Assembly: GCA_043810695.1 (NCBI GenBank)
Contig: JBDRNV010000018.1
Coordinates: 1 to 48,464 of the forward strand
Origin: Nanobdellota archaeon
GTDB taxonomy: Archaea; Nanobdellota; Nanobdellia; Pacearchaeales; GW2011-AR1
Length of the DNA: 48,464 nt
Direction of reading: 5' to 3'
The position numbers were made by a program, and so were the translations under genes. Below the pieces are notes generated by a model that was not told where the DNA came from, ran no database searches, and saw only the letters and a program-made list of their open reading frames with translations. Every line of letters starts with the position of its first letter. Position 1 is the stretch's first letter. Below, piece after piece: positions 25,882-48,317 of this stretch.

Positions 25882-25904
25882 TTAAATATATTAAAAAATG
25901 TAAA

Positions 25905-34196: not shown

Positions 34197-34207
34197 TTAA
34201 AAAATAT

Positions 34208-34218
34208 CGCCCCGACCG
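34208..34218 (+). repeat. Core repeat copy 1 (CGCCCCGACCG), 12 nt after the subtilase stop codon
   Basis: Exact 11-mer, followed by arm GACAGGGTGTAGG (34225-34237). Confidence 0.9.
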
Positions 34219-34260
34219 AAAGTAGACAGGGTGTAGGTGCCCACAAATTTAAGGGTGTGG

Positions 34261-35115
34261 TCACTTAGCTTTCTTCTTATGAACAGAAAGATATCGTCTC
34301 AGAAAATAAGAAACAAAACTGTCTTCGTCTTTTTCTAATGCCTTATAATATGACTTTCTTTTTTTATATTCTATGATAAGCATAGGATATTTATTATGCC
34401 ATAATATAGAATTCATTAAAAGTCTCCCAACTCTTCCATTACCGTCTCCAAAAGGATGTATTTTTTCAAATTGATAATGTGCCCTTCCTGATAGTTCCAC
34501 GGAGTTCATTTTTTTATTTTTTTCAATGAATTCTATAAATCTTTTCGTTAGATTCTCAATGTCCTGCCAATCTGGAGCTAAATGTGGACCAACTCTGACA
34601 AGATAATCTCTAAACATCCCCGCAATATCCGGCTTTGTTTCACCAAATATATCTTTATGCCATTTTAATAATAACTCTTTAGTAATTTTTTCATTCTTTT
34701 TTAACATCTTTAAAAATACTTTATTGTGGGATTCTGTTTCTTTAACATCTCTTAAGGGTTTATTTGGAGAAATTTTATCATGAATAATTTCCCTTGTTTC
34801 TTCTAAGGTGATTGTGGAGCCCTCTATGGCATTTGTGTTATAAGTGAAGGCAATGGATATCTCTTCAAGTTCTTTTTCCTTCACACTTTCTGGAATTCTT
34901 TTCCACTCGATTTGAAAATTTTCCTTTATTCTTTCAAACTTGTTATAGAGGTCTGTTTTTAACTCCCTGTTAAATTCTTCTTTTATTTTACTAATATCTT
35001 TAGGTATTAAAGAGCCCAAATATTTTTCTTTTTTTACTACTTTATTGCCTTTTCTTATGCTATGTTCTAAGTAATAGTATTCTTTCTTGCCCTTAGTTTT
35101 TTTTCTTATAATCAT
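34261..35115 (-). CDS. Fic family protein (AMPylase/adenylyltransferase-like)
   Basis: 284 aa with the canonical Fic motif HPFGDGNGRVGRLL. Confidence 0.88.
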   Translation of the reverse strand: MIIRKKTKGKKEYYYLEHSIRKGNKVVKKEKYLGSLIPKDISKIKEEFNRELKTDLYNKFERIKENFQIEWKRIPESVKEKELEEISIAFTYNTNAIEGSTITLEETREIIHDKISPNKPLRDVKETESHNKVFLKMLKKNEKITKELLLKWHKDIFGETKPDIAGMFRDYLVRVGPHLAPDWQDIENLTKRFIEFIEKNKKMNSVELSGRAHYQFEKIHPFGDGNGRVGRLLMNSILWHNKYPMLIIEYKKRKSYYKALEKDEDSFVSYFLRRYLSVHKKKAK

Positions 35116-35135
35116 AGAATAATATACCCCTACAC

Positions 35136-35144
35136 ATTTATATA
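35136..35144 (-). promoter_or_regulatory. TATA box (TATATAAAT on the minus strand) about 25 nt upstream of the Fic start
   Basis: Lies inside the module, between 7-bp inverted repeats CCCTACA (35128-35134) and TGTAGGG (35166-35172). Confidence 0.45.
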
Positions 35145-35174
35145 CTTTTCTGTTTCTGATTAATATGTAGGGAC

Positions 35175-35186
35175 ACGCCCCGACCG
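35175..35186 (+). repeat. Core repeat copy 2 (ACGCCCCGACCG)
   Basis: Exact 12-mer. Together with the next 31 nt it forms a 43-bp repeat (35175-35217) that recurs at 36370-36412 with one mismatch. Confidence 0.9.
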
Positions 35187-35187
35187 A

Positions 35188-35217
35188 AACCAGTATAAAA
35201 GTTTACGGGTTAGGGTT
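35188..35217 (+). repeat. 30-bp arm AACCAGTATAAAAGTTTACGGGTTAGGGTT, copy 1
   Basis: Identical to 36383-36412. Both copies lie immediately right of a core copy. Confidence 0.9.
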
Positions 35218-35237
35218 TATGAGGGATGTTAGTTAGA

Positions 35238-35570
35238 TTAATCTTTTAAAAAAGAAATTATTTTGTTCAAGATCCCGTTAAATTTTTCTGACTTTAAAGA
35301 ACCAATTTTATATTTGATTAACGATTTTTCTATAGAGAAGATTTTATCTAATCTAAGATAGCTATCAACTTTTAATCCACCTCTAATAAAGTCTTTTTTA
35401 ATAACTGGAATTTCAACAGAAGATTCATATGATTTACCGGTTATTTGGTTAACTATAATATCATCGCCTTTTGGAATCTTAATAATTAAAACAGGTCTTC
35501 GTTTAACTTGCACTAAATTTGAGAAAGGGAAATCTATAACAATTACATCACCTTTCACAAGTCTTTCCAT
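35238..35570 (-). CDS. mazF: PemK/MazF-family toxin (endoribonuclease)
   Basis: 110 aa. GDVIVIDFPFSNLVQVKRRPVLIIK is the MazF/PemK N-terminal signature. Overlaps the upstream antitoxin ORF by 16 nt. Confidence 0.8.
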   Translation of the reverse strand: MERLVKGDVIVIDFPFSNLVQVKRRPVLIIKIPKGDDIIVNQITGKSYESSVEIPVIKKDFIRGGLKVDSYLRLDKIFSIEKSLIKYKIGSLKSEKFNGILNKIISFLKD

Positions 35571-35773
35571 ATCTCATCTTCCTCTTTATTCAACCATGTC
35601 TTTGCCAAAGATTTCTCTGACATTAAAGCCGTTTCTGGAATAGACTTCTTCAGAATTATTTCGTCATCTTTTCTGATTACGATTAGCTTATCTCCTTCAT
35701 TAATTCCTTTACGCAAATCTAAGGGAATTACTATTTGTCCCCTTGAACTCATCTTGGTTGTATCAATTATCAT
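35555..35773 (-). CDS. mazE: AbrB/SpoVT-type (MazE-like) antitoxin
   Basis: 72 aa. SSRGQIVIPLDLRKGINEGDKLIV is a swapped-hairpin AbrB motif. Confidence 0.75.
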   Translation of the reverse strand: MIIDTTKMSSRGQIVIPLDLRKGINEGDKLIVIRKDDEIILKKSIPETALMSEKSLAKTWLNKEEDEIWKDL

Positions 35774-35790
35774 AAATAAGATTAATCTTA

Positions 35791-35802
35791 CTTATATTTA
35801 AA
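35791..35802 (-). promoter_or_regulatory. TATA box (TTTAAATATAAG on the minus strand) about 24 nt upstream of the mazE start
   Basis: Position and composition only. Confidence 0.4.
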
Positions 35803-35823
35803 TGTTTGTTTTTTAGTTAAGAC

Positions 35824-35835
35824 ACGCCTCGACCG
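35824..35835 (+). repeat. Core repeat copy 3 (ACGCCTCGACCG, one C-to-T difference)
   Basis: Followed by arm GACAGGGCGTAGG (35842-35854), which is 12/13 identical to the arm after copy 1. Confidence 0.85.
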
Positions 35836-35844
35836 AACTACGAC

Positions 35845-35855
35845 AGGGCGTAGGA
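35845..35855 (+). repeat. Left 11-bp inverted repeat of the 150-aa-ORF module (AGGGCGTAGGA)
   Basis: Perfect reverse complement of 36355-36365 (TCCTACGCCCT). Confidence 0.85.
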
Positions 35856-35858
35856 GAA

Positions 35859-36311
35859 TTATCTTCTTGAGGTAAGATCGTGCGCAAACATTATAGAATC
35901 ATTTGGCCTTTCATAAGCTGTCCCATGACTCGATTTTCTTTCCATGGCTTCACTACCTGATACCACTGGAAGAAAAGTCAGAGAAAAAGCGACTTCTTGA
36001 CTTCCCAATGGTCCAACCTCATGAAATGGTTTATGATAATAGGATTCTAAGCCATATTCTCTTAACATATTTTTAACAGCATCATTTTCCATAGGAGATT
36101 TTAAGGTAACTGTAAAGTATCTAGCAGAGGCATATTTACCTTGCCCCCGATCCTCTAAATCAGCATCCCATTTAAAATTTAAAACCCTAGAATCTTCTTT
36201 TAGTTTAAATAGAGAAGTTAAACAACTAACATCGGCTTCCTTATAACTAGTCATTGCAACTACATGCTCAAGAGCAGCTATTCTGAATCTTTGATGATCT
36301 TCATTAAACAT
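35859..36311 (-). CDS. Hypothetical protein (cassette-borne, no family recognised)
   Basis: 150-aa ORF that fills the module. Visibly more G+C-rich than its neighbours (about 40% by eye). Confidence 0.55.
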   Translation of the reverse strand: MFNEDHQRFRIAALEHVVAMTSYKEADVSCLTSLFKLKEDSRVLNFKWDADLEDRGQGKYASARYFTVTLKSPMENDAVKNMLREYGLESYYHKPFHEVGPLGSQEVAFSLTFLPVVSGSEAMERKSSHGTAYERPNDSIMFAHDLTSRR

Positions 36312-36354
36312 GATTTTAGATTAAATTACTCCTTTAAAAAACTTGTGAAAGATA

Positions 36355-36365
36355 TCCTACGCCCT
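36355..36365 (-). repeat. Right 11-bp inverted repeat of the 150-aa-ORF module
   Basis: TCCTACGCCCT is the reverse complement of 35845-35855. It lies 5 nt before core copy 4. Confidence 0.85.
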
Positions 36366-36369
36366 AGGC

Positions 36370-36381
36370 ACGCCCCGACCG
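36370..36381 (+). repeat. Core repeat copy 4 (ACGCCCCGACCG)
   Basis: Exact 12-mer, followed by the 30-bp arm shared with copy 2. Confidence 0.9.
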
Positions 36382-36382
36382 T

Positions 36383-36412
36383 AACCAGTATAAAAGTTTA
36401 CGGGTTAGGGTT
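36383..36412 (+). repeat. 30-bp arm AACCAGTATAAAAGTTTACGGGTTAGGGTT, copy 2
   Basis: Identical to 35188-35217. Its last 2 nt overlap the methyltransferase stop codon. Confidence 0.9.
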
Positions 36413-37124
36413 ATTTTTTTAATGTCAGAAAAGTCTTATTATATCCGCTATTGTAATATTCAATAAACTTGAATTTTTTACATTTCTTAACAAAATCGTA
36501 AAAAGCTTTCTGTTCTCCTTTATTTGGATTTCCTTTAAAGGCATTCCAATCATCAAAGTGGATAATTGTCCCCTCTTGTAAGTAAGGTTCTATGAACTCA
36601 AATACTTCTTTTGCAGACTCATATAAATCACAATCTATATAAGCAACAGCTAACTTTTTGATTTTGTGTTTTTTCTTTAAGGTTTCAGAATAAAACCCTT
36701 TCACAGCAAAAACTTTATTTAAATCAATCCCATTTCCTTTAAGATTTTTCATAAAATCTTCTAAAGAACAAGAATATTCTCCCCTTTTCCATATTGCTTC
36801 TTTATCTATTCCTTTTATTTCTGGTAAGCCTTCAAAACTATCAAAAGCCCAGAAGTTCATATTTTTTATTCCAAAAAACTCTGCAAATTTGTAAGCAGCA
36901 ATAAAAGAATGTCCTTCATAAACACCAAATTCAGCATAATCTCCATCTATTTTTCCAAGATGAACAAATCCCATAATTCTCCTAAGAATTTCTTCAGAAG
37001 AGCTATAAAGGACGAGATTTCTAAGCCAGTAGATGGGTTTAGACCAACGGAATCTTACAAACGCTTTTTTTAATAATTCTTTCATTCCACGAATTAATGG
37101 AATGTTTCTTTTAAATCTTACCAC
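36411..37124 (-). CDS. Class I SAM-dependent methyltransferase, TylF/macrocin-O-methyltransferase-like
   Basis: 237 aa from GTG 37124; ATG at 37085 (M14) is an alternative start. DGDYAEFGVYEGHSF, AFDSFEGLP, YIDCDLYES and IIHFDDW match the TylF-family motifs. Confidence 0.7.
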   Translation of the reverse strand: MVRFKRNIPLIRGMKELLKKAFVRFRWSKPIYWLRNLVLYSSSEEILRRIMGFVHLGKIDGDYAEFGVYEGHSFIAAYKFAEFFGIKNMNFWAFDSFEGLPEIKGIDKEAIWKRGEYSCSLEDFMKNLKGNGIDLNKVFAVKGFYSETLKKKHKIKKLAVAYIDCDLYESAKEVFEFIEPYLQEGTIIHFDDWNAFKGNPNKGEQKAFYDFVKKCKKFKFIEYYNSGYNKTFLTLKK

Positions 37125-37135
37125 ATATTTATGGA

Positions 37136-37357
37136 ATGAAAAGAAGAGACAGCTTATCTATAAAAAAGAGAATTTTACAAGTCTTAAAAGAAAATGGTGA
37201 AATGTCTTTAGGAGAATTAGAAAGAAAAACAAACACCAATAATTTAACTATCTTATCTCATATTAAAGAGTTAGAGTTTTTTGATAGAATAGAAATAATA
37301 AAACATAAGAAAAGTGATAAAACCGGCAGACCATATACAAGTATTAAGTTAAAATAA
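37136..37357 (+). CDS. Small winged-helix (ArsR-like) DNA-binding protein
   Basis: 73 aa. KRILQVLKENGEMSLGELERKTNTNNLTILSHIKELEFFDRIE. Divergent from the methyltransferase with almost no spacer. Confidence 0.6.
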   Translation: MKRRDSLSIKKRILQVLKENGEMSLGELERKTNTNNLTILSHIKELEFFDRIEIIKHKKSDKTGRPYTSIKLK

Positions 37358-37402
37358 ATTTACTATCTTTCTTTGTTTTCTTAAACCGTATATTAAATAT
37401 CA

Positions 37403-37414
37403 ACGCCCCGACCG
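37403..37414 (+). repeat. Core repeat copy 5 (ACGCCCCGACCG)
   Basis: Exact 12-mer, 5 nt left of the 21-bp terminal inverted repeat of the integrase/R-M unit. Confidence 0.9.
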
Positions 37415-37419
37415 GACGA

Positions 37420-37440
37420 TTAGTATTACGACAACACTCT
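37420..37440 (+). repeat. Left 21-bp terminal inverted repeat
   Basis: Perfect reverse complement of 48285-48305. Confidence 0.92.
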
Positions 37441-37444
37441 GAGT

Positions 37445-37466
37445 TCGTCATTTAAATATTTGACGA
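37445..37466 (+). promoter_or_regulatory. Integrase promoter: TATA-like TTTAAATATT (37451-37460) bracketed by 6-bp inverted repeat TCGTCA/TGACGA
   Basis: The TATA centre is about 25 nt upstream of ATG 37480. The inverted repeat flanks it symmetrically and may be an operator. Confidence 0.45.
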
Positions 37467-37479
37467 GCTAAGGAGTAAT

Positions 37480-38673
37480 ATGAACAAGACACAAGACATA
37501 CATAACTACAAAAGAATTTTAGACAGACTCATCGAGAGAATAACTTTTGAAGAAAACTTTTCTAAAGCTAATAAGAATACTGCATTAAAGTTTAAGGATG
37601 AACTCTTGTCACAGAATATAGGCCTTGCTAAGACTGGACGATATTTGCAAGATATAATTTGGCTTAATAGAAATTTTGATGGAATGGATTTTGAAGAGGC
37701 AACAAAAGCAGATATTAAAAAATTAGTGGCCAAAATGAATGTCTCAGAATTAGCAGAATCTACAAAGAAGGGAATTAAGGTTATGCTTAGAAAACTTTAC
37801 AAATTTCTTCGAGGAGTTGATGGAAAAGGAAAATACCCTCCAGAAGTCAATTGGTATACACTAACAATCTCAAATAGTAACAAGAAAATTCCAGAAGAAT
37901 TGTTGACTGAAAATGAAATGGCGGATATAATAAAGTTTTGTAAGAATGATAGAGATAGAGCTTTAATGTCCTTGATGTGTGAGTCTGGTTGTAGAATAGG
38001 AGAGGCTGGTTCAATGCAAATAAAACATGTTTTATTTGAAGAATATGGGGCAAGGATTACATTAAAGGGAAAAACTGGAATGAGAAAAATATTAGTTGTT
38101 AAATCTGCACCACACCTTCGAAACTGGATAAATCTTCATTCCAATTTAGAGAATAGGGAATCTCCTCTTTGGCCAGGCCCTTCAGGAGAATGTCTTAGCT
38201 ATGCTAGGATAGTTAATATTCTCAAAGAGAGTTCAATCAAAGCAAGGATTAGAAAACGAGTCCATCCACATCTTCTAAGGCACAGCAGAGCAACTTTGAT
38301 GGCGAAAACAGCAACAGAAGCTACTATGAAACATTATTTAGGATGGACCCAAGGAAGTAACATGGCTGCAATATACATTCATTTTAGTGGAAAAGATACT
38401 GATGATGCAATTCTTCAACAGAACGGAATAATAATTAAAAAAAGTGAGACTGATTCACCAATGAAACCTAAGAAATGCTTCAGGTGCCATAGTCTCAATG
38501 GCTTTTCAGATAATTTTTGCAAGATTTGCTCTATGCCTTTAAATGAAGGAACTGCAACAAAGGTTATTGAAGAAGACTCTAAAAGACAGAAGGCAGATAA
38601 TTTAATGAATCAATTATTTAATGACCCTGAAATTCTTAACCTTATTCAGATGAAGATTTCTTCAAAAACCTAA
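37480..38673 (+). CDS. Tyrosine recombinase/integrase with C-terminal zinc ribbon
   Basis: 397 aa. Candidate catalytic residues sit in ESGCRIGEA (Arg), HPHLLRHSRAT (His-x-x-Arg), HYLGW and AAIYIH (Tyr). The C-terminal CFRCHS...CKICS is a zinc ribbon. Confidence 0.82.
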   Translation: MNKTQDIHNYKRILDRLIERITFEENFSKANKNTALKFKDELLSQNIGLAKTGRYLQDIIWLNRNFDGMDFEEATKADIKKLVAKMNVSELAESTKKGIKVMLRKLYKFLRGVDGKGKYPPEVNWYTLTISNSNKKIPEELLTENEMADIIKFCKNDRDRALMSLMCESGCRIGEAGSMQIKHVLFEEYGARITLKGKTGMRKILVVKSAPHLRNWINLHSNLENRESPLWPGPSGECLSYARIVNILKESSIKARIRKRVHPHLLRHSRATLMAKTATEATMKHYLGWTQGSNMAAIYIHFSGKDTDDAILQQNGIIIKKSETDSPMKPKKCFRCHSLNGFSDNFCKICSMPLNEGTATKVIEEDSKRQKADNLMNQLFNDPEILNLIQMKISSKT

Positions 38674-39139
38674 TTTTCCTCTTTATTTCTCCCCTTAAAT
38701 ATGTGATTTCCTCATTAAGAATTATCTTTTGATATTCTAATGATTTAAGTTTAGCTCTTAATTTTTTTATTGGAATTTTCTTCTTCCCTGTTGCTTCTTC
38801 CTCTGTTCTTCGGTATCTATTAAATTTTGCTAATGCCTGTTTGTATGCCTTACTTCCCTTGTTAGGATATTTCTTACAAATTTTTAGATATTCTATCTGA
38901 TTTTTTTGTTCATTTCCAGAAATAATCTCTAGAGAATCTTTTGCTCTAACATAATCTCCAAATAAGTTTTCAGATATTCTTTTGTTTATTAGTGTTATCG
39001 AGAAGTATCCATTTGGGACTTGTTCAACCACATCTTTATTCTTCCAATTCATATGATTAATTAATTTCTTGTTTAATGGATAGAGAACTCGGTCAGACTT
39101 AATAGTAATTCGTCTTGTTCTTGGGCGTCTTGTTCCCAT
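38642..39139 (-). CDS. Hypothetical basic protein
   Basis: 165-aa ORF convergent with the integrase (32-nt overlap). No family recognised. Confidence 0.45.
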   Translation of the reverse strand: MGTRRPRTRRITIKSDRVLYPLNKKLINHMNWKNKDVVEQVPNGYFSITLINKRISENLFGDYVRAKDSLEIISGNEQKNQIEYLKICKKYPNKGSKAYKQALAKFNRYRRTEEEATGKKKIPIKKLRAKLKSLEYQKIILNEEITYLRGEIKRKIRFLKKSSSE

Positions 39140-39164
39140 ATACGAACTTGGAAAGGGTTATTTA

Positions 39165-39180
39165 AAAACGTATACGTTTT
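39165..39180. promoter_or_regulatory. Perfect 16-bp palindrome AAAACGTATACGTTTT in a divergent intergenic region
   Basis: Lies between the divergent ORFs 38642..39139 (-) and 39301..39567 (+). Confidence 0.4.
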
Positions 39181-39300
39181 GTAGATAAAATTATAGATAC
39201 AATTCTTACTTTTGTTTGTTATGGAATGGGTAGAAAAGTTACTCGAATTAAAAAAAGAAAATGAAAAGGAGCCCTCAAAAGAGGACTCCGAACAAGACAC

Positions 39301-39567
39301 ATGGGAAAAGAATTAGAAATACTTAAAGGACGACCGGGTCTTTACTCAAGGTTCTTAGAGAGATTATTTTTTGCTTGGCATAAGATACCAATATCTTCAA
39401 GAAAAGATTATCTTCCATATCCAGAATTTAGATTAGCAATTTCTCGCAGCTTCCAAATTACTAAACAGGAAGCAATGGAAATTTTGAGAATATTTGTAGA
39501 CTTAGAATATGTAACACTTCAAAAAAGAGGAGTTAAATTAAATTTTAAGGTCATCGAAAATGAATGA
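39301..39567 (+). CDS. Small hypothetical protein, possible winged helix
   Basis: 88 aa. ITKQEAMEILRIFVDLEYVTLQKRG is wHTH-like. Overlaps the next ORF by 8 nt. Confidence 0.45.
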   Translation: MGKELEILKGRPGLYSRFLERLFFAWHKIPISSRKDYLPYPEFRLAISRSFQITKQEAMEILRIFVDLEYVTLQKRGVKLNFKVIENE

Positions 39568-40333
39568 AAAGATTCGTAAAATTTTTCGTAATCCTAAGTC
39601 TATAGCTTATCGGGCCTTTTTTTATATTGGAACTCATCAAGACGAACATTTATTGTATATTTCAATACTATCAAGACATACTAAAATAAAATATACCTCT
39701 CTCCACTATTGGATTACTAAATTTAAACAGGAGGGATTAATCAATAAACAACTAGAATTTACTTCTAGAGGGAATAAACTATTCAAATTTTTATGGGAAA
39801 TGAAGGATGTTAAATTGTTAAGAGCCCATAACATTCAAATAATTTTTTATTTATCCTCTTGTCCAGTAGAATTTGTTAAAAGGTATTCAGATAAAGTTTT
39901 TACTGTATTTACGAATAAGAAGTTTATGGGATTGAATGGAGAAGTAAAAACACCTTATGGAATTATTTCTATTATGTTTTATAGCCGAAAGAAAATTGTT
40001 TGTGTTTTAAAAGATATTTTTGGAGAAACTGACGAAGATATTTCTTCTGCTATTGCTTCTCAAGTTCCAGATGTTATTCAATTACTAGAATCTACATTTA
40101 AGGGCATTAAAGTGGAATCACATAAACCTGCAAGGATACAAACATCCCATATAGCTGTTATTAATTCTAATTTTGCAAAGAGATTTGATTTGAACAGTAT
40201 AACTTATGAAGGGAAGAATATTGCAATGGACCGTTCTCAAGGGAATGAAGAATTGGAGCTTACAAATCCACGAAATAATTTATTAGGAATTGAATTTCTT
40301 AAAAAACTGGAAGAGGGATTAGACGACCTATAA
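39560..40333 (+). CDS. Hypothetical protein with N-terminal wHTH (possible plasmid or viral replication or regulatory protein)
   Basis: 257 aa. LYISILSRHTKIKYTSLHYWITKFKQEGLINKQ is wHTH-like. The C-terminal region is unrecognised. Confidence 0.45.
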   Translation: MNEKIRKIFRNPKSIAYRAFFYIGTHQDEHLLYISILSRHTKIKYTSLHYWITKFKQEGLINKQLEFTSRGNKLFKFLWEMKDVKLLRAHNIQIIFYLSSCPVEFVKRYSDKVFTVFTNKKFMGLNGEVKTPYGIISIMFYSRKKIVCVLKDIFGETDEDISSAIASQVPDVIQLLESTFKGIKVESHKPARIQTSHIAVINSNFAKRFDLNSITYEGKNIAMDRSQGNEELELTNPRNNLLGIEFLKKLEEGLDDL

Positions 40334-40336
40334 ATA

Positions 40337-40839: not shown

Positions 40840-43587
40840 ATGGCTCAAAATGATAATCTTAGTGAAGCGGAGACAAGGCAACAAAAGATTGACAAGGATT
40901 TAGAAAAAGTTGGCTGGAGAAAAGAGTATATAAAAGAGGAGATTAATTCTGTTAAATCTGATTTTAGAACAAAAGAATATGCTCCATTCAATGGAAATGT
41001 GGAGAAGGGAGTGGATAGGTTTATTGACTATTTATTACTTGATGAACAAAAGAAACCCTTAGCCTTAATTGAGGCAAAGAAGACTTCTGTAAGTGTTGAG
41101 AAGGGTATGATACAGTCAAAATCTTACCAATTAGATATAGAGAAACAGATTGGAAGGAAGATTCCAATCTTCTTAACCAATGGTAAAACTTGGTATTTTA
41201 TTGATTCTGAAGATATTAAAAGAAAAGTTTTATTGCCGTTAAGTCAAAAGGACCTCACAAGAAGACAAAGTTTAGATACAAGGAAGAGAGCACCTTCAAA
41301 AGTCAAAATTAATTCAAATATTGTTGATAGGGATAGAAGTGTTTTGGCAGTTAAACAAGTCTTAGAGCACTTTGAAAAAGGACATAGAAAAGCTCTTGTA
41401 AATATGGCTACAGGAACTGGGAAGACAAGAGTTGCTATGGCAATTATTGATGGGCTTATTCAATCAGGACATGTTCAAAAAGTTTTATTTGTAGTTGATA
41501 GAATATCTCTTGCTAATCAAGCTAAAGAAAATGGATTTAAAGCATTTTTTAAGGAACCTGTTTGTGAGCTCAATTCTGAAGGATTTTCAGATTCTCAGAG
41601 ACTTTATGTTTCCACAGTTCAAACTTTAATGAGTGAAATAAAACCTCGAGGAAAATTTTATGAGAAGTTTGGAGTCGGAGCATTTGACTTAATAGTATTT
41701 GATGAGGCTCATCGTTCTTATTATGATAGAAATAATGATATTATGGAATATTTTGATGCACTTGTTATGGGCTTGACAGCAACACCATCTACTAAAGAAG
41801 AGAGAAATACTTACAAATTATTTAATTGTGAACTTGGGAAACCAACAGTAGAATATAGTTATGATGAAGCAGTAGAAGAAAAAGTTCTTGTTCCTTACGT
41901 TGCAGAGGTTATTGGAACAAAAGTTTTAACTTTAGGAATTGAAGGTGCAAAATTGAATAAAAAATTAAAGCAATCCCTTGCAGAGCAAGAAGAAAATCCT
42001 GAAGAATTAGAACTTCCCGGTTCAAGATTTGAAAAGTATTTTACTGATAGAAGAACAAATGAATTAATTCTAAAAGAATTTATGGACAGATGTTATAAAA
42101 CTCCTAATGGAACCCCATGTAAAACGTTGTTTTTTTGTGCAAGTGTGAAACATGCAGAATCATTAAAAAGATTATTTGATGAACTATACCCTTTATTAGC
42201 AAAAACAGCGAGGGTAATTACTTCTGATAGAACTAGATATATGGATGAAGTAAGGAGATTTAAAAAAGATTCTGACCCTCGGATAGTATTCTCTGTTGGA
42301 GTTCTTGATACTGGGATAGATATTCCAGAACTTTGCAATCTAGTATTTGTAAAACCAGTATTCTCTTACATTAGATTTTGGCAAATGCTTGGAAGAGGAA
42401 CTAGAAACTTTGAAACATGTAAAAATAAGTCTTGGTTATCCCATAAAGGAGATATTCCTGTAAAAGAAGATTTCTTGATATTAGATTTTATGTTTGGAAA
42501 TCATTCTAATGTAAAGGAGCATGACCTTGATAGAACAAAGGCAAGAGCGGTTACTATTAGTGCAAAAACAAAAATTTTCTTAGAACAAGTTGAATTATTA
42601 GAAAAAGGGCTCAAAGGAAAAGAAAAGGAAATCATAACTAAAGAGATTCTTGAAACTGTAAAAAATATAGATGATGAATCTCCAATGGTATTAGAGAAGA
42701 AGAATATTATTAAAAAAATTGTTTCTGCAAAATTTGATTTAGAAAAACATATTAAAGAATTAAAAGAAGAAATAGCACCTCTTCTAATATATTCTAAATC
42801 AGAAAATTCAAAAGTTTATAGTTTTGTTTTAAAATGTGTAAGGCTTTTTGATTCAATTAAAAAGAAGGATGGTGAAGCCATAGGGAAAATTCAAGACTAT
42901 GCTAAAGAACGATTAGAAAATATTTGGGGTAGTGGGCTAGAGGTTGTAAGGGAAAAGGATAAAGAAATTAAGTTAATTCTCGGAGATGACTTTTGGAGTG
43001 ATTTAACATTCGAAGATGTAGACTTCCTCATAAGAGATATTTCTCCTTTGATGATTTATTATGAAACTGACAGGAAGAAAATATTGAGAATTGATGCACC
43101 TGACACAATAATTAGTAAAGAAGAAATTAAAAAAGAAAAAAAAGAGAATCCAGATTTTGTAGAATTTCTAAATAAGAATCCTTTATTGAAAAAAATAAAA
43201 GATGGGGATGGGGTAACTTCTAAAGAACTATTAAAAATAGAAAAAAAGTTATCTGAACTTAACCCTGCATACACTATTGAAAATATCCAAAGGAGCCAAG
43301 ATTTTGTTTTATTTTTAAGGGAATTAATTGAAATTAAAGATTTACCAGACCCTCAACAAATGATTAAATGGGAATTTGATAAACACGTTGCTGATAAGAA
43401 TGAACATTATAATTCTGACCAGTTAAAATTCTTAAAGTTTCTTAGTAGAATATTTATAAGTTCAAAGCACATTGAATTGAAGAGTTTTGCAGAGCACCCT
43501 CTTACAGAAGAGAGGCCACTTGATTTATTTACTCCTAAACAGCTTAAGATTATTACTGAAAAATGTAACGAGTTAAGATGGAAATAA
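40840..43587 (+). CDS. hsdR: Type I restriction enzyme, R subunit (HsdR), with EcoEI-R-like C-terminal domain
   Basis: 915 aa. N-terminal AETRQQKIDKDLEKVGW and PD-(D/E)xK-like FIDYLLLD...ALIEAKK. Helicase motif I MATGTGKTRVA, motif II VFDEAHRS and motif III GLTATP. Confidence 0.88.
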   Translation: MAQNDNLSEAETRQQKIDKDLEKVGWRKEYIKEEINSVKSDFRTKEYAPFNGNVEKGVDRFIDYLLLDEQKKPLALIEAKKTSVSVEKGMIQSKSYQLDIEKQIGRKIPIFLTNGKTWYFIDSEDIKRKVLLPLSQKDLTRRQSLDTRKRAPSKVKINSNIVDRDRSVLAVKQVLEHFEKGHRKALVNMATGTGKTRVAMAIIDGLIQSGHVQKVLFVVDRISLANQAKENGFKAFFKEPVCELNSEGFSDSQRLYVSTVQTLMSEIKPRGKFYEKFGVGAFDLIVFDEAHRSYYDRNNDIMEYFDALVMGLTATPSTKEERNTYKLFNCELGKPTVEYSYDEAVEEKVLVPYVAEVIGTKVLTLGIEGAKLNKKLKQSLAEQEENPEELELPGSRFEKYFTDRRTNELILKEFMDRCYKTPNGTPCKTLFFCASVKHAESLKRLFDELYPLLAKTARVITSDRTRYMDEVRRFKKDSDPRIVFSVGVLDTGIDIPELCNLVFVKPVFSYIRFWQMLGRGTRNFETCKNKSWLSHKGDIPVKEDFLILDFMFGNHSNVKEHDLDRTKARAVTISAKTKIFLEQVELLEKGLKGKEKEIITKEILETVKNIDDESPMVLEKKNIIKKIVSAKFDLEKHIKELKEEIAPLLIYSKSENSKVYSFVLKCVRLFDSIKKKDGEAIGKIQDYAKERLENIWGSGLEVVREKDKEIKLILGDDFWSDLTFEDVDFLIRDISPLMIYYETDRKKILRIDAPDTIISKEEIKKEKKENPDFVEFLNKNPLLKKIKDGDGVTSKELLKIEKKLSELNPAYTIENIQRSQDFVLFLRELIEIKDLPDPQQMIKWEFDKHVADKNEHYNSDQLKFLKFLSRIFISSKHIELKSFAEHPLTEERPLDLFTPKQLKIITEKCNELRWK

Positions 43588-43647
43588 GTCTACAATTGTA
43601 GACTTGATTATAGTAAGATTTAAAAAGGATAAATATTCTAACCTTTT

Positions 43648-44040
43648 ATGCAAGACGAAATTAAACAACCAAAAGACTATGTTTCTATGTCTACAAGACT
43701 TCCCTCTGTCGATGCTGTTAAATTAAAATTTCACTGTAAAAGAAATGGGGTTTCGCCTTCAGAGTTTATTCGAGACATTGTTCATGAAAAGATGAATGAA
43801 TCACCAATCTCTCATCTTGCAGGCTCCAATAAAATTGAATATGACCTTCAAAAGGATAGTTTTGTTTGGAAGGTTGTGGGAGATGATGGTCAAAACTATG
43901 AAATAATGAAAAATATTGGCATTGAGCTTTTAGAGGATTTATCAAGAGAGATTAAATTTCAAATAAATAAGAGAAGGGATTTGATTGGAAAGAAATCAAA
44001 AGAGTCTGTAACAATACCACGGAGGTTAGTAAAAAAGTGA
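43648..44040 (+). CDS. Ribbon-helix-helix (CopG-like) protein with unknown C-terminal domain
   Basis: 130 aa. YVSMSTRLPSVDAVKLKFHCKRNGVSPSEFIRDIVHEKM has strand-helix-helix spacing. Its stop overlaps the next start (GTGA at 44037-44040). Confidence 0.55.
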   Translation: MQDEIKQPKDYVSMSTRLPSVDAVKLKFHCKRNGVSPSEFIRDIVHEKMNESPISHLAGSNKIEYDLQKDSFVWKVVGDDGQNYEIMKNIGIELLEDLSREIKFQINKRRDLIGKKSKESVTIPRRLVKK

Positions 44041-44324
44041 GTTTAGAATCAAATTTATTATTTCTTGTAATCTTTGGAATATCAGGGTATGTTGTCAACA
44101 AAATTTTTGATTTCAATCCTGCAGAATACTGGGTAAAGTTTGGAACAATAAGTATTATTGCCTCTTTAACAATTGCCTATCTTCCTACAGTTTTTAATCC
44201 GGAAGATGTCGTAAATAACGTTCTTAGGATTACAACATGGTTTACTAATATTTTGCCAGGAGTAATAATTGGGGACATTGCAGGTCAAATCGTTTCTTCA
44301 TTTACAGGAGGAAATAAGAAATGA
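44037..44324 (+). CDS. Small membrane protein (2-3 TM helices)
   Basis: 95 aa from a GTG start. Hydrophobic segments LLFLVIFGISGYVV, ISIIASLTIAYLPTVF and ILPGVIIGDIAGQIV. ATGA overlap with the next ORF. Confidence 0.5.
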   Translation: MSLESNLLFLVIFGISGYVVNKIFDFNPAEYWVKFGTISIIASLTIAYLPTVFNPEDVVNNVLRITTWFTNILPGVIIGDIAGQIVSSFTGGNKK

Positions 44325-45208
44325 ATCAATTCGAAGAGTTCGAGTTTTTAGACAGTTCTGGAAATAAAACCAAACATAATTGTGATAAATCAAAATTAGC
44401 AAATTTACATGGTGCTAATCCAAATGCACCTCAATTCTTAACTCCTGTATTTTTTGATAAAGAAGTTCTAGATAGATATTACAACAAGCCTTCAGAATAT
44501 TCTATCCAAGATGGGGCATTATTCTTCGGAATAAAATGGATGGTGAGATTAGATAATAATTCTAGAGATTGTATAACTGTCTATCTTGGGGATTTAGGAG
44601 ACTTGCCACATAAAGAACAATTACATTGGAAATTCCATAACATTACTCAAGGGTCACTTAGTAATGTATCTCTTAAAAGAGATTTTATGGCAGAATTTAC
44701 TCCGGCCCAAGAACCCTCATTAGTTTTTAAACAAAAACTTAATAATTTTAATAAAAAATGGAATGAAAAGTTTGAATGGGATTTGTTCAAACCCTTAAAT
44801 AATGAAGATGAACATCACCTAAAATCATTAAAAATTCCAAAGAATGAACAAAAAGAATTTGATGAGATTATTTTGTCTCTTAACAAAATTATTATAGATT
44901 CTTTAAACGTTGCCGAAATGAAGAAACACTTAGATTCTAAAGAAGAAGAGAAATCAATTTCAGTCCTTGAGAGATATTTAAAACAGAAATATCGACTTAG
45001 CAATATTGAGATGTTTAATTTTCTAAGAAGTTTACAAATTTTAAGGTCTAGAGGAAGTGCTCATAGAAAAGGAAGCGATTATCATGAAATTTATAAAAAA
45101 TTTGATGAGGGTGATTTTTCAAAAACTTTTGAGAAAATATTAATTAAATCTATCTGGATATTGAATACGTTGGAGAATAAAATATTGGAGAGTGGAAATG
45201 GTAAGTAA
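44321..45208 (+). CDS. Unknown protein with C-terminal Rx5H (HEPN-like) motif
   Basis: 295 aa. The helical C-terminal region contains LRSLQILRSRGSAHRKG (R242-H248, nt 45044-45064). Overlaps the hsdS start by 11-17 nt. Confidence 0.5.
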   Translation: MNQFEEFEFLDSSGNKTKHNCDKSKLANLHGANPNAPQFLTPVFFDKEVLDRYYNKPSEYSIQDGALFFGIKWMVRLDNNSRDCITVYLGDLGDLPHKEQLHWKFHNITQGSLSNVSLKRDFMAEFTPAQEPSLVFKQKLNNFNKKWNEKFEWDLFKPLNNEDEHHLKSLKIPKNEQKEFDEIILSLNKIIIDSLNVAEMKKHLDSKEEEKSISVLERYLKQKYRLSNIEMFNFLRSLQILRSRGSAHRKGSDYHEIYKKFDEGDFSKTFEKILIKSIWILNTLENKILESGNGK

Positions 45209-46370
45209 GTGGAAGGATTTTAAAATTGAGGATTTAGGAGAGATTATTACTGGAAATACTCCTTCAAAATCTGAGCCTGAAAATTACGGCGACAAAACTC
45301 CCTGGGTCAAACCACCTAATTTAGATATTGAAAAGTATCTTTTTGAGACTGAAGATTATCTCTCGGAAATTGGAACAAAAAAAGCAAGAATATTGCCTAA
45401 AGGAACAGTTCTTGTTTCGTGCATTGGAAATATTGGTAAAATAGCTATAGCAGGTAGGAAAATGTGCACTAATCAACAAATCAATAGCATAGTTCCAAAT
45501 AATAATATTAGTGGTGAGTTTTTGTATTATGCAATAAAAAAGTTTCAAAAAAGATTAGAAGATAAAGCAACAAAAGCAGTAGTTCAGTTACTAAATAAAA
45601 CAGAGTTTTCTAAAGTAGAGATTCCAATTCCAATTCTCTCAGATGGAACTCCAGACCGAAAAAAACAAGAAGAAATTGTTTCAATTCTTGAAAAGGCAGA
45701 AGCATTAAAGAATAAAAGAAAAGAAGCTGAAGAAATCCTTGATGAATATTTAAAGGCGGTTTTTTATAATATGTTTTTGAAGCATAAGGAGAAGTTTGAG
45801 GAAGTTGAGTTAAGCGAAATTTCTGAATTGATAACAAAAGGAACAACACCTACAACATATGGGTACAAATATCAAGAATCAGGAATCCCTTTTTTAAAAG
45901 TAGAAAACATTACTTCTGGGGAAATAAATTTTTCTGTGAATTCCAGATATATTGATGAAGAAACGCATGAGTTTCTTAAGCGGTCTCAGCTAAGAAGAGG
46001 AGATGTTTTATTCTCAATTGCAGGAGCAATTGGAAGGTCTGCAGTGGTAAATACAGACAAAAAGATGAATCTTAACCAAGCAATTGCTATTATTAGGCCA
46101 AAAAAAATTATCAATTCAAGATTTTTATCTACTGTTCTAAATACTTCATTTATTAAAAATCAAATACAAAACGTAATTGTCAAAGTCGCGCAGGCAAATT
46201 TAAGTTTGACAGAAGTGAGAAAAATTAAAATACCTTTACCTCCAAAAGAACTCCAAGAAAAATTTCTATCAATAATAAATTATGCTAAGCAATTTCAAAT
46301 TGAAGAAGAGACGGAAGACATATTTAATTCATTATCACAAAAAACATTTACAGGAGAATTAGTAAAATGA
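45192..46370 (+). CDS. hsdS: Type I R-M specificity subunit (HsdS), two target-recognition domains
   Basis: 392 aa from GTG 45192 or ATG 45198. Two TRDs with LGEIITGNTPS / ISELITKGTTPT openings, and conserved helical spacers (EEIVSILEKAEALKNKRKEAEEILDEYLKAVF and LQEKFLSIINYAKQF). Confidence 0.85.
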   Translation: MEMVSKWKDFKIEDLGEIITGNTPSKSEPENYGDKTPWVKPPNLDIEKYLFETEDYLSEIGTKKARILPKGTVLVSCIGNIGKIAIAGRKMCTNQQINSIVPNNNISGEFLYYAIKKFQKRLEDKATKAVVQLLNKTEFSKVEIPIPILSDGTPDRKKQEEIVSILEKAEALKNKRKEAEEILDEYLKAVFYNMFLKHKEKFEEVELSEISELITKGTTPTTYGYKYQESGIPFLKVENITSGEINFSVNSRYIDEETHEFLKRSQLRRGDVLFSIAGAIGRSAVVNTDKKMNLNQAIAIIRPKKIINSRFLSTVLNTSFIKNQIQNVIVKVAQANLSLTEVRKIKIPLPPKELQEKFLSIINYAKQFQIEEETEDIFNSLSQKTFTGELVK

Positions 46371-46750
46371 ATAAAGAATACAAACATGATTGTGATAAAA
46401 TGCATATTGTGGAGGGAAAATTAGTAAAATCAAAAGATGATTATCAAAATTTAATAGATTTTGTAAAGAGATGGGAATTAAAATGCAAGGATATTCAAAA
46501 GCAAGCTTATGACAATCAACAATGTTATGATATATCTATGATGTTTATAGACGAATGGGCCTATAAGTTCTTTTATCAAGATAAGGTAAAAAATAAATTA
46601 ACTTTAATAAATCAACTATCTAATGACTTTAGAATAGCTGTAATAAAAGCCAATAATAATTATAAAAAAGAGAATAGGACTTTTTGGAACCTATTTTTTA
46701 AAGATAAATTAAAACTACCTGATTTACATCTACATACAAAAAGAATATGA
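46367..46750 (+). CDS. Hypothetical protein inserted between hsdS and hsdM
   Basis: 127 aa. ATGA overlap with the hsdS stop. No family recognised. Confidence 0.45.
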   Translation: MNKEYKHDCDKMHIVEGKLVKSKDDYQNLIDFVKRWELKCKDIQKQAYDNQQCYDISMMFIDEWAYKFFYQDKVKNKLTLINQLSNDFRIAVIKANNNYKKENRTFWNLFFKDKLKLPDLHLHTKRI

Positions 46751-46787
46751 AACAAATTAATAAAAAGCAAGGAGGAATTGAGTAAAT

Positions 46788-48281
46788 ATGTTACACCCAG
46801 AATTAAAATCAAAAATTAGGAAATTATGGGATAAGTTTTGGAGTGGAGGAATTAGTAACCCTCTTCAAGCAATTGAACAAATATCTTATTTAATTTATAT
46901 GAAAAGGTTAGAGGATAAGGAAGTTCAAAGAGAGCAAGAAGCAATTCTTAAAGGAATAAAATATAAATCTATCTTTGAGGGACATGAAGATTGTAGATGG
47001 AGCGAGTGGAGTGAATATCCTGCAGAAAAAATTCTTGACCATGTAAGATATAAAGTATTCAAGTTTATGCAAGGTCTTGGAGATGATGGTGGATTATATG
47101 CCAAGTATATGGCAAGTGCCAATTTTGAAATTCCAACGGCATCATTAATTATTGAAGCAGTAAGCATAATTAATGATTTACATATTAAAGAACAAAATCA
47201 GGATGCTCAAGGAGATATTTATGAATATCTTTTATCTGAATTACAAACTGCAGGGAAGAATGGGCAATTTAGAACTCCAAGACATATTATTCAAATGATG
47301 GTTGAGCTTACAAAACCTGAACTTAATGATAGGATACTTGACCCTACATGCGGGACTGCAGGATTTTTAGTTAATGCCTATGAGTATATCCTAAAAGAAA
47401 ATACCTCTAAGTCTTTAATTAAGATTGATGATGAAGGAAATCAATATAATTTCAAGGCAGATAAATTAAAACCGCAACAAAAGAGATTTTTAGATGAAGA
47501 AACAATTTATGGTAATGATATAGACCCTGTTCTTACAAGAATTGCTTTAATGAATTTAATGATGCATGGAATAACAAAACCAAATTTAAAACAGCTTAAT
47601 ACACTCTCAAAAAGATACAATGAGGAGAATACCTATAATCTTATCCTAGCTAACCCTCCCTTCAAAGGTTCAATTGATGAATCTGAAATGAGTGATAATT
47701 TTAGGATTAAAACTAAGAAAACAGAATTATTATTCTTAGAATTAATGTATAACTCTCTTGCAAATGGAGGGAGATGTGCAGTAATAATTCCTGATGGAGT
47801 TTTATTTGGCGGCTCTAATGCACATAAGGCAATAAGAAAATTAATCTTAGAGAGATGTAGACTTGATGCAGTAATCTCCATGCCCTCAGGAGTATTCAAG
47901 CCTTATGCAGGAGTTTCAACAGCAGTTTTATTTTTTACAAAAGGAGAATCTACAAAGAATGTTTGGTTTTACGAAATGGAGGCAGATGGGTTCACTTTGG
48001 ATGATAAAAGAACTAAAATTAAACAAAATGATATTCCAGAGATTCTTGAGAGATTTGAAAAAAGAAAAAAAGAGGATAATGAAGATAGAAGCAAGAAACA
48101 TTTCTTTATTCCAATTGAAGAGATTATTAAGAAGGATTATAGTCTTAGCTTATCAGCTTATCAAAAGAAAATATACAAGCAAGAAGTGTATGAAGAGCCA
48201 TCATACTATCTTGACCGATTTGAAAAGAAGATAGGAGAAATTGCTAAGAACACTAAAGAGCTAAAGAAGCTCATGAAATAA
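46788..48281 (+). CDS. hsdM: Type I R-M N6-adenine DNA methyltransferase subunit (HsdM)
   Basis: 497 aa. HsdM N-domain (LWDKFWSGGISNPLQAIEQISYLIYMKRL), motif I DPTCGTAGFL and motif IV NPPF (LANPPFKGS). Confidence 0.9.
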   Translation: MLHPELKSKIRKLWDKFWSGGISNPLQAIEQISYLIYMKRLEDKEVQREQEAILKGIKYKSIFEGHEDCRWSEWSEYPAEKILDHVRYKVFKFMQGLGDDGGLYAKYMASANFEIPTASLIIEAVSIINDLHIKEQNQDAQGDIYEYLLSELQTAGKNGQFRTPRHIIQMMVELTKPELNDRILDPTCGTAGFLVNAYEYILKENTSKSLIKIDDEGNQYNFKADKLKPQQKRFLDEETIYGNDIDPVLTRIALMNLMMHGITKPNLKQLNTLSKRYNEENTYNLILANPPFKGSIDESEMSDNFRIKTKKTELLFLELMYNSLANGGRCAVIIPDGVLFGGSNAHKAIRKLILERCRLDAVISMPSGVFKPYAGVSTAVLFFTKGESTKNVWFYEMEADGFTLDDKRTKIKQNDIPEILERFEKRKKEDNEDRSKKHFFIPIEEIIKKDYSLSLSAYQKKIYKQEVYEEPSYYLDRFEKKIGEIAKNTKELKKLMK

Positions 48282-48284
48282 ACA

Positions 48285-48305
48285 AGAGTGTTGTCGTAAT
48301 ACTAA
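48285..48305 (-). repeat. Right 21-bp terminal inverted repeat
   Basis: AGAGTGTTGTCGTAATACTAA is the perfect reverse complement of 37420-37440. It directly abuts core copy 6. Confidence 0.92.
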
Positions 48306-48317
48306 ACGCCCCGACCG
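48306..48317 (+). repeat. Core repeat copy 6 (ACGCCCCGACCG)
   Basis: Exact 12-mer immediately after the right terminal inverted repeat. Confidence 0.9.

Follow-up and report, generated by a model that had tools for sequence, protein, structure and literature searches.

A probable tRNA-Glu-anchored accretion array of integrase-less cassettes and an integrative element in a DPANN archaeon

The window analysed here is a 48,464-nt stretch of DNA from a Nanobdellota archaeon (the whole of contig JBDRNV010000018.1, G+C ~30%), and its right-hand part carries an array of gene modules separated by copies of a short repeat, which we call the core. The pattern CGCCYCGACCG was found six times, on the + strand only, at 34208, 35176, 35825, 36371, 37404 and 48307. 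All six copies were intergenic and stood only at module borders. No extra copy was found in the window with up to two mismatches allowed, and dinucleotide-preserving shuffles gave 0.00 expected matches. The scan and the shuffles bore out an earlier interpretation made from the letters of this DNA (the sequence-only reading), which had reported six intergenic copies in the same orientation and none elsewhere in the 48 kb.

Read on the opposite strand, the core is CGGTCGGGGCG, which corresponds to the final 11 nt of tRNA-Glu. It is made up of the last three bases of the T-stem (CGG), the 7-base 3' acceptor strand (TCGGGGC) and the discriminator G. The core had been proposed as a novel, non-canonical site; it is instead the tRNA-Glu 3' end, the classical attachment site (attB) type of tRNA-targeting integrases and no new kind of site. 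The identity shared by all module borders was this 11-nt tRNA end alone, and the flanks varied among junctions. The copy at 35825 is a T variant (CGCCTCGACCG) with a G to A change in the tRNA acceptor strand, and the same variant occurs in the 100%-identical contig L102 (loci and contigs fetched for comparison carry L numbers). As the tRNA-Glu fragments lie on the minus strand, the intact tRNA-Glu gene must be to the right of copy 6, beyond the window end. ARAGORN detected no tRNA right of copy 6, the 147 nt after this copy were not tRNA-like, and Rfam gave no significant match across the array. The locus is very probably a tRNA-Glu-anchored accretion array of a DPANN (Nanoarchaeota-type) archaeon, in which an autonomous integrative element and four integrase-less cassettes are stacked. 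The region would then be the distal part of the array, with the anchor tRNA-Glu on the minus strand just past the right end of the window.

Core S1 (34208..34218, minus strand) is the tRNA-Glu 3'-end fragment most distant from the tRNA and adjoins the host flank, the 3' end of a putative 1347-aa surface protease gene. This junction recurs at 100% identity in L102 and L103. Module 1 (34219..35175, minus strand) is a Fic cassette with Fic at 34261-35115 (Pfam Fic, 2.2e-19) and an A-type arm beside S1. The tRNA-side partner of core S2 (35176..35186, minus strand) is the MazEF B arm in the window, L102 and L104, versus the tRNA-Glu T-arm in L103. Module 2 (35187..35824, minus strand) is a MazE/MazF cassette (35555-35773 and 35238-35570), and its B arm (35187-35217) forms the cassette end in the tRNA sense. 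Core S3 (35825..35835, minus strand) is the variant copy. Module 3 (35836..36370, minus strand) holds a 150-aa open reading frame (ORF, 35859-36311), whose protein is without a Pfam family, between inverted arms of 11 bp (35845-35855 and 36355-36365). After core S4 (36371..36381, minus strand), module 4 (36382..37403, minus strand) carries a TylF-like methyltransferase (MT, 36411-37124, minus strand) and a winged helix-turn-helix (wHTH) gene (37136-37357, plus strand), with a B arm at 36382-36412.

Core S5 (37404..37414, minus strand) is the att site beside the integrase, and its alternative partner is the tRNA-Glu body in L099 and L109. Module 5 (37415..48306, plus strand) is the 10.9-kb element, read as an autonomous integrative element, with the integrase, a backbone of small ORFs and a type I restriction-modification (R-M) system (HsdR 40840-43587, HsdS 45192-46370, HsdM 46788-48281). 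The tyrosine integrase (397 aa, 37480..38673, plus strand; PF00589, 5.7e-20) has a Xer-like catalytic domain and a C-terminal CxxC...CxxC zinc ribbon. The integrase-proximal arm of the element attachment site (attP) is 21 bp long (TTAGTATTACGACAACACTCT, 37420..37440), and the distal arm (48285..48305) is its perfect inverted copy. Core S6 (48307..48317, minus strand) is followed by the end of a further module (arm D, AGCATAGAATTATAGATGGGGG, 48318..48464, minus strand), which is cut by the contig end and is not tRNA body; this stretch had no match in any fetched locus. The module contents named earlier (Fic; MazE/MazF; a 150-aa unknown; TylF-like methyltransferase plus wHTH; integrase and type I R-M) agreed with the Pfam assignments, and the same contents supported the remark that the cargo is typical of cassette arrays. 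TATA-like boxes were found at −27 to −31 of MazE, the wHTH gene, the integrase gene and the MT gene read from the ATG at 37085, and near-matches preceded Fic and the 150-aa ORF. The claim of TATA boxes about 25 nt upstream thus held for the first four genes, with near-matches only for the other two.

The eight unknown ORFs of the 10.9-kb element showed no viral or plasmid hallmark in PHROGs. The type I R-M operon was split by four ORFs without a Pfam or PHROG match (window 43648-45208 and 46367-46750), those of 130, 95 and 295 aa lying between hsdR and hsdS and that of 127 aa between hsdS and hsdM.

The integrase had hundreds of homologues of ~395 aa at 48-64% identity, and the named ones were Pacearchaeota, Woesearchaeota or Nanoarchaeota by annotation. 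In an alignment of 35 sequences the catalytic residues R172, K198, H264, R267, W289 and Y299 were invariant, as were the four C-terminal cysteines of the zinc ribbon (C333, C336, C347 and C350). The integrase ORF is unsplit, and the att core lies 66 nt upstream. The nearest NCBIfam model was the XerA_Arch equivalog, far under threshold (86.8 bits against a cut-off of 220), and the closest solved structures were XerA and XerH. The integron-integrase model TIGR02249 gave 41 bits against a cut-off of 265 and covered only profile positions 7-186 of 315, and PRK15417 gave 20 bits against a cut-off of 435. The comparison with IntI models, which had been suggested beforehand, shows that the integrase is not IntI.

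These values bear on whether the modules are of the Xer/dif type, as in Acinetobacter pdif modules and integrative mobile elements exploiting Xer (IMEX), where a housekeeping XerA would act on dif-like flanking sites. XerA was the best NCBIfam and PDB match of the integrase, and small toxin–antitoxin (TA) modules with short recombination-site borders resemble pdif modules (PMC6449649). However, the equivalog score is well below its cut-off, the integrase gene sits on a 10.9-kb insertion, and its family members lie within elements of 4-10 kb that have tRNA-end repeats at their borders. The site corresponds to the 3' end of tRNA-Glu and not to an 11-6-11 dif-like palindrome; a 28-bp dif-like site of this form was absent at the module borders of the window array. 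Moreover, all core copies are direct, whereas pdif sites alternate in orientation. Action of a housekeeping XerA on dif-like sites is therefore a very improbable explanation.

In total, 80 loci of integrase homologues were fetched from species-representative genomes, and the DNA upstream of each gene was read. In most of them the integrase gene lies 65-85 nt downstream of a same-strand tRNA 3' end; in both L001 and L039 the upstream DNA contains ...TTCGAATCYCGGTCGGGGCG and ...GACCCGRGTTCGAATCYCGGTCGGGGCG. In L007 and L015 the integrase stands beside a reverse-complemented tRNA-end fragment, with the geometry of the window, so both core orientations relative to the integrase occur in the family. 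In L006, L011, L013, L017, L020, L023, L036, L042 and L060, an 11-16 nt tRNA 3' end recurs once, 4-10 kb downstream; in all of these but L060, the direct repeats were put at 12-16 nt. These second copies are on the same strand and bracket the integrase, and the repeat changes with the tRNA. The close integrase relatives L081-L085 adjoin tRNA-Asp or an intron-containing tRNA, and the window and these loci have a common backbone order: integrase, small antisense ORF, small ORFs, ~255-aa ORF and R-M cargo. For L081 and L084, the closest long relatives, no second att copy was found within the DNA fetched. A 1.09-kb single-gene module lies beside the integrase in L015.

Some further loci showed tRNA-end repeats at short spacing. 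In L045 (nt 933-1135) the 3' part of tRNA-Gln was present three times at ~95 nt spacing, and in L060 (nt 7338-7610) the 3' part of tRNA-His was present three times at ~121 nt spacing, with no coding cargo between the copies in either locus. They look like stacks of att remnants or mini-units beside integrase loci. Integrases 34-52% identical to that of the window were also present on bacteria-binned contigs (L009, L012, L021, L033, L043, L046, L049, L059 and L073; bins of Victivallales, Lentisphaerae, Dadabacteria, Elusimicrobia, Nitrospirae and Saccharibacteria), which suggests either mis-binning of DPANN contigs or a spread of the family across domains.

The attP was reconstructed as distal arm, core and proximal arm. 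In L011, L017, L020, L036, L042 and the window, the reconstructed sites had inverted arms (8-21 bp) whose midpoint was tRNA position 66, the T of CGG-T-CGG. The window attP is a 59-nt near-palindrome (DNA fold z = −12), which supports, for the large unit, the arm-core-arm layout proposed earlier for excised circles. The 21/21 inverted repeats of the large unit and the 11/11 inverted repeats of the 150-aa module are symmetric about the same core nucleotide. L006 repeats the design at a different tRNA: the tRNA is followed by a GNAT cassette of 626 bp, whose perfect inverted arms (15 bp) have their centre at position 66, and then by an integrase element. The substitution in the variant core at 35825-35835 stands at the edge of the inferred overlap region, and it might reduce recombination there.

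Terminal inverted repeats of 21 bp, 15 bp (L006) and 11 bp beside a direct repeat of 11-13 bp could also suggest site-specific transposons, with the 11-bp direct repeats as target-site duplications. However, Pfam and PHROGs scans detected no transposase or Cas1 in the array. The inverted repeats start 5-9 nt from the core repeat and are symmetric about a point within it, and most modules are without terminal inverted repeats. The repeat is also a tRNA end across many tRNAs and changes with the tRNA. We consider such transposons highly unlikely.

Variants of the array were recovered from other assemblies; the samples in which they occur include JGI 3300014613 and 3300014656 and ENA ERZ928008 and ERZ27247121. 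Scanning metagenomes for the central 21 nt of the B arm yielded six contigs, and exact-protein look-ups with Fic returned L103, L102 and L104. L096, L100 and L101 carry an intact tRNA-Glu (CUC or UUC) ending CGGTCGGGGCG and then at least two small modules, each of which terminates in an A or B arm plus core. L099 and L103 are headed by an intron-containing tRNA-Glu(UUC). Over its nt 536-2044 (1509 nt), L099 matches window 37414-35906 at 100.000% identity, and the contig reads tRNA-Glu, MT plus wHTH, 150-aa ORF, with the intron-containing tRNA-Glu(UUC) in place of the 10.9-kb element. L109, an independent assembly, repeats the L099 junction. L103 reads tRNA-Glu, core, Fic module, core and host flank, with 1128 nt 100% identical to the window. 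The order in L102 and L104 is that of the window, so the window junctions were reproduced. Occupied and unoccupied sites coexist at 100% identity (L099/L109 and L103 versus the window), with the caveat that the context upstream of the L099 tRNA differs.

The variants are nested and share the distal end: tRNA then Fic; tRNA, MT, 150-aa ORF and onward; and the window type with integrase element, MT, 150-aa ORF, MazEF and Fic. Every variant breakpoint was the 11-nt core. This nesting can be explained by successive insertion at the tRNA-proximal core or, equally, by deletions between the tRNA core and an internal core. Homologous recombination is an unlikely cause of the variants, as an identity of 11 nt would be too short for it. 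The array site is syntenic, with ThrRS and a 225-aa gene on one side and tRNA-Ile, PspC and tRNA-Glu on the other (L103 versus L100). As the sequence-only reading had anticipated, the hits sit at module borders with content and order varying between strains, and empty or alternative sites are present in L099/L109 and L103. The variant junctions, which break exactly at the core, support its proposal that the cores are probable crossover sites of a tyrosine recombinase.

If the core were a generic intergenic motif, such as a repetitive extragenic palindrome (REP)-like element or a terminator, the variant junctions would be assembly artefacts. Four contigs from Hainich groundwater start exactly at the core, which indicates that assemblers break there. 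This idea conflicts with the lack of further copies in 48 kb, the repetition of the L099 junction in L109 and the recurrence of the window junctions in L102 and L104. Chimeric joins are also not expected, because the 11-nt repeat is shorter than the k-mers in the contig names (k127, k141). There is very little probability that the core is such a motif.

The tRNA genes at the array heads contained introns of 41 and 47 nt after the anticodon in tRNA-Glu(UUC) and tRNA-Ile(UAU) (L099 nt 433-546; L103 nt 51-175 and 495-608). Array heads are easily missed, because ARAGORN without the intron option skips intron-containing tRNAs. L098 has an intron-containing tRNA-Glu(CUC) ending CGGCGGGGGCG at nt 1038-1154. 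In the same contig, 3 kb downstream (4181 and 4646), a B arm and then an A arm, each before the UUC-type core CGGTCGGGGCG, bracket a 465-bp cassette, so the cassette cores mismatch the nearest tRNA end.

Homologues of the 150-aa ORF formed just one cluster (93% identity), found on 12 short contigs that come from metagenomes of Hainich groundwater and from a Nanoarchaeota metagenome-assembled genome. The 150-aa module was 94.7% identical in the Hainich contigs L086-L095, where it occupied at least three contexts with exact core borders. The host genes on the same contigs (ThrRS, Tyr/TrpRS and the 225-aa gene) were 66-74% identical to window 22075-28773. Comparison of these two values shows that the cassette is far younger than the host divergence. 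L086 has cores (tRNA sense) at 66, 642, 1146, 1760 and 2305, and its modules are a ParE-type TA pair, a 127-aa ORF, MazEF and a 151-aa ORF, followed by the 225-aa ORF, ThrRS and Tyr/TrpRS. The upstream neighbour of the 151-aa module is MazEF in L086, L088, L089 and L095, versus the ParE module in L092 and L093; its downstream neighbour is the host flank in most contigs and another module in L093. In the tRNA sense, the order is 150-aa ORF then MazEF in the window, versus MazEF then 151-aa ORF in L086. Between the array and the 225-aa/ThrRS block, the window carries two large genes (28876-34196) which are missing there in L086 and L101. They encode a 402-aa protein and the 1347-aa protein, which by eye shows both subtilisin-type D/H/S motifs and a cysteine-rich C-terminus.

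A catalogue across the arrays comprised 33 distinct junctions and 19 complete modules. The complete modules were 0.44-1.6 kb long and held one to three genes, nearly all in the tRNA sense. Their cargo was MazEF (four), ParE-type pairs (two), Fic (two), methyltransferase plus wHTH, and small unknowns. Integrase-less units were present four times in the window and also in L006, L015, L086, L096, L100 and L101. The arm families described earlier were recovered: GACAGGGYGTAGG follows core copies 1 and 3, and core copies 2 and 4 share a 44-nt repeat (core plus 30-mer, 98% identical). The A arm comprises CCTACGCCCTGTCGTAGTT and its variants. The B arm, AACCCTAACCCGTAAACTTTTATACTGGTTN, was near-identical at the ends of unrelated cassettes (ParE, 127-aa, MazEF, MT) in both host lineages, and three cassettes with unrelated ORFs had a common start region of 60-80 nt (the Y end) together with the B arm. 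Three findings argue for the cassette as a distinct unit: the ends are conserved while the cargo varies, the 150-aa module has spread horizontally, and L006 holds the GNAT cassette described above.

Two composite units were seen. In L100 (nt 937-2563), a 1.6-kb unit combines a Fic-like gene with MazEF without an intervening core, and in L096 (reverse complement, nt 717-2255), two unknown ORFs flank an inverted MazEF. They suggest core loss or cassette fusion.

Several candidate features of the arms were tried and rejected. The rule that every module has inverted arms was given up, as only 3 of 19 modules exceeded the non-cognate 99th percentile. The idea that the A, B and D arms are inverted copies of the family's integrase-proximal arm was not borne out: an ungapped position weight matrix (PWM) built from this arm in 22 loci gave them p = 0.5-0.9, and a likeness between the B arm and that consensus, noted by eye, was dropped. 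An attC-like single-strand hairpin for the B arm plus core was rejected (z = +0.14, −0.37 and +0.69 against shuffles), and for the A arm plus core it was weak and inconsistent, with a partial fold and z from +0.07 to −4.0.

A number of results weigh against accretion at tRNA-Glu by integrase-driven recombination. Upstream of the identical tRNA-Glu, the L099 and L103 sequences differ (L099 nt 1-431 versus L103 nt 1-493), and the contexts diverge within ~1 nt of the tRNA 5' end. The upstream part of L103 (tRNA-Ile, PspC) is syntenic with L100, whereas L099/L109 carries an unrelated ORF resembling a membrane-protein gene and a TATA box of its own. The divergence could be due to a second gene copy, to a tRNA carried by an element or to an insertion at the 5' end of the tRNA; the tRNA-Glu of L099 may therefore be an additional or element-borne copy and not mark a simple empty site. 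The excised form or empty site of the element was visible only via L099/L109, as the exact window integrase and HsdM products, like those of the methyltransferase and the 150-aa ORF, had no gene on record in the assembly collection; nothing therefore extends the window past 48464. The proposed recombination is deduced from sequence junctions. Cognate inverted arms above the non-cognate 99th percentile were present in only those 3 of 19 modules and in two of the five window modules. The A, B and D arms were unlike the family consensus of the integrase-proximal arm at the PWM values just given, and the same PWM gave the element's own arm only p about 0.05. Recognition of the small-cassette junctions by family integrases is putative, since the arms are off the family consensus and so few modules have cognate inverted arms. 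Finally, the MazEF module was 78% identical to the L086 module, but the cassette ends in a B arm in the window versus an A-like arm in L086, and the swap starts immediately downstream of the stop codon. This arm exchange is not explained by a crossover confined to the core.

Module-specific inverted arms had been proposed earlier for the modules delimited by the cores. They hold for the large unit (21/21) and for the 150-aa module (11/11). The 7-bp arms of Fic were at chance level and not symmetrically placed, and the window MazEF and MT modules showed no cognate inverted arms above background.

These arm results raise the question of whether the small modules are immobile, decayed remnants of complete elements that arose by internal deletion, with the strain variation produced by core-core deletions. 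The scarcity of cognate inverted arms, the departure of the small-module arms from the family consensus and the fused or rearranged modules of L100 and L096 fit such decay. The nested same-strain variants could all derive by deletion from a window-type array, and archaeal elements are known to lose the integrase after integration (PMC8371274). Decay does not readily explain why the 545-bp 150-aa module is 95% identical, with exact core borders, in at least three contexts across hosts that are 66-74% identical, or why the B arm and the Y end are both kept while the cargo differs. The L006 GNAT cassette and window module 3 retain full inverted arms centred on the crossover position, and many units of 0.44-1.6 kb with the same ends are not expected from independent decay. 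We regard decay as an unlikely explanation of the small modules, but as one that carries appreciable weight.

A true integron of an unusual archaeal type, with IntI, attI and attC cassettes, was also weighed. The array runs in one direction, consists of small cassettes with TA and defence cargo and adjoins a divergently transcribed tyrosine recombinase, and archaeal integrons exist, Nanoarchaeota included (PMC9668308). However, the integrase matches TIGR02249 only in part and far below the cut-off, the B arm plus core forms no hairpin (z about 0) and the cassettes carry their own TATA boxes. No GTTRRRY box was found in the arm/core junctions, which confirms, together with the fold values, the earlier statement that both this box and an attC hairpin are lacking. 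The intI/attI/cassette geometry that had been seen in the locus does not apply: the recombinase lies inside a 10.9-kb mobile array entry that is missing from the identical strains L099/L109, the fixed anchor is the tRNA gene, and the common site is its 3' end. An integron is accordingly extremely improbable. The sequence-only reading is partly supported, being right on a strain-variable tyrosine-recombinase cassette array and wrong on the site and the platform.

Accretion at the tRNA-Glu gene would proceed as follows. The integrase would bind the inverted attP arms and exchange strands within CGGTCGG around tRNA position 66. New DNA would enter at the tRNA-proximal core and regenerate the tRNA, and older units would be pushed outward. 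Recombination between any two cores, which we infer to be carried out by the window integrase or by a relative acting in trans, would produce circles of one or several modules. Cassettes could then remain in place, be lost by deletion, re-enter the array at another point or move to new hosts, and they might travel alone or as passengers of a composite circle with an integrase-bearing element. A vehicle for cell-to-cell transfer was not found with PHROGs on the element ORFs or among the viral contigs of IMG/VR, which contained just three distant integrase relatives (36-37% identity) and zero A- or B-arm junctions.

A bolder version, which we put forward tentatively and consider somewhat less probable than not, is that DPANN archaea have an integron-like cassette capture that evolved independently from tRNA-site integration, with trans-acting zinc-ribbon integrases and the 30-nt B arm as the counterpart of attC. 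The A or B arm plus the tRNA-Glu 3' core would then be dedicated cassette ends, and cassettes would be captured at the tRNA, stacked, reshuffled and exchanged between distantly related hosts.

The closest known systems are tandem accretions at tRNA or tmRNA genes that include cis-mobilizable units without an integrase. They are represented by the ssrA genomic islands of Dehalococcoides, in tandem at an RNA gene (PMC3146451), and by the arrays of integrative and conjugative elements and cis-mobilizable elements (ICE/CIME) of Streptococcus (PMC5704250). Like the window array, these have a fixed RNA-gene anchor, 3'-end direct repeats between tandem islands and strain-variable content, and some of their islands lack an integrase and presumably move together with an adjacent one. 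Unlike their multi-kb islands, the units here are mostly 0.44-1.6 kb with a single gene or TA pair, unit families share A/B arm ends, and the host belongs to the DPANN archaea. The recombinase here is a zinc-ribbon tyrosine integrase, whereas that of the Dehalococcoides islands is a serine recombinase.

In the tycheposons of Prochlorococcus, tyrosine recombinases act at a few tRNA genes and partial tRNAs are found through the islands (bioRxiv 10.1101/2020.12.28.424599). The resemblance extends to newcomers that push older units inward to the island, plug-in cassette cargo and heterogeneous populations. Tycheposons have modules for integration and for replication, and those parts that lack an integrase are described as remnants; the integrase-less units here are, in contrast, discrete, have conserved ends and are shuffled. 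The tycheposon integrase family is presumably unrelated in sequence to the window integrase family.

The classical non-suicidal archaeal tyrosine integrases of the XerA/pNOB8/SNJ2 group have att identities of 8-13 bp in some elements (PMC8371274). The window family shares with them the Xer-like catalytic domain, an att outside the integrase gene, the tRNA 3'-end target and a short att identity (11-16 nt here), and tandem integrations are known in that group. It differs in the C-terminal zinc ribbon and in long, perfectly inverted attP arms symmetric about position 66; the words 'DPANN', 'Nanoarchaeota' and 'zinc' are absent from the text of PMC8371274. In SSV-type 'suicidal' integrases the att lies inside the ORF and the gene is split, whereas the window ORF is intact with the core upstream.

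With archaeal integrons (Ghaly et al. 2022, PMC9668308) the array has in common a chromosomal tyrosine-recombinase site stacking small same-oriented TA and defence cassettes, a syntenic position with variable content, and cassette ends more alike within the array than the cargo. It differs from them in the lack of an IntI-specific domain and attC hairpin, in cassettes with their own promoters, in a recombinase located on a mobile array entry, and in a double-stranded tRNA-end core as the site. Acinetobacter pdif/dif modules use the host XerC/D and 28-bp dif-like sites alternating in orientation on plasmids (PMC6449649, PMC13141974). They are likewise small, often carry TA or adaptive genes, have short tyrosine-recombinase borders and no recombinase of their own, and are much shuffled; the window array differs in its direct chromosomal tRNA-end copies and element-borne recombinase. 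Distinct here are the single-gene, promoter-bearing miniature units, the cassette families with conserved ends and the DPANN zinc-ribbon integrase lineage. Open-access papers and bioRxiv preprints gave no description of this DPANN integrase family or of archaeal tRNA-anchored mini-cassette arrays, and prior work elsewhere is possible.

DPANN archaea have tiny genomes, and their gene exchange is little understood. At this locus one tRNA-Glu gene would serve as a landing pad that stacks TA, Fic, methyltransferase and R-M genes, the small units being 0.5-1 kb. Gain, loss and reordering of units, and their passage between hosts ~30% divergent in housekeeping genes, are evidenced from real populations. 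The proposal offers a concrete, testable mechanism for defence-gene flux in DPANN episymbionts. The 11-nt core, the 59-bp palindromic attP and the 397-aa integrase provide a natural minimal substrate for an uncharacterised archaeal integrase family. For annotation, it matters that such arrays break assemblies at the core and that the tRNA fragments escape tRNA finders. If the cassettes are independently mobilisable, the array would represent a second, independent origin of integron-like gene capture.

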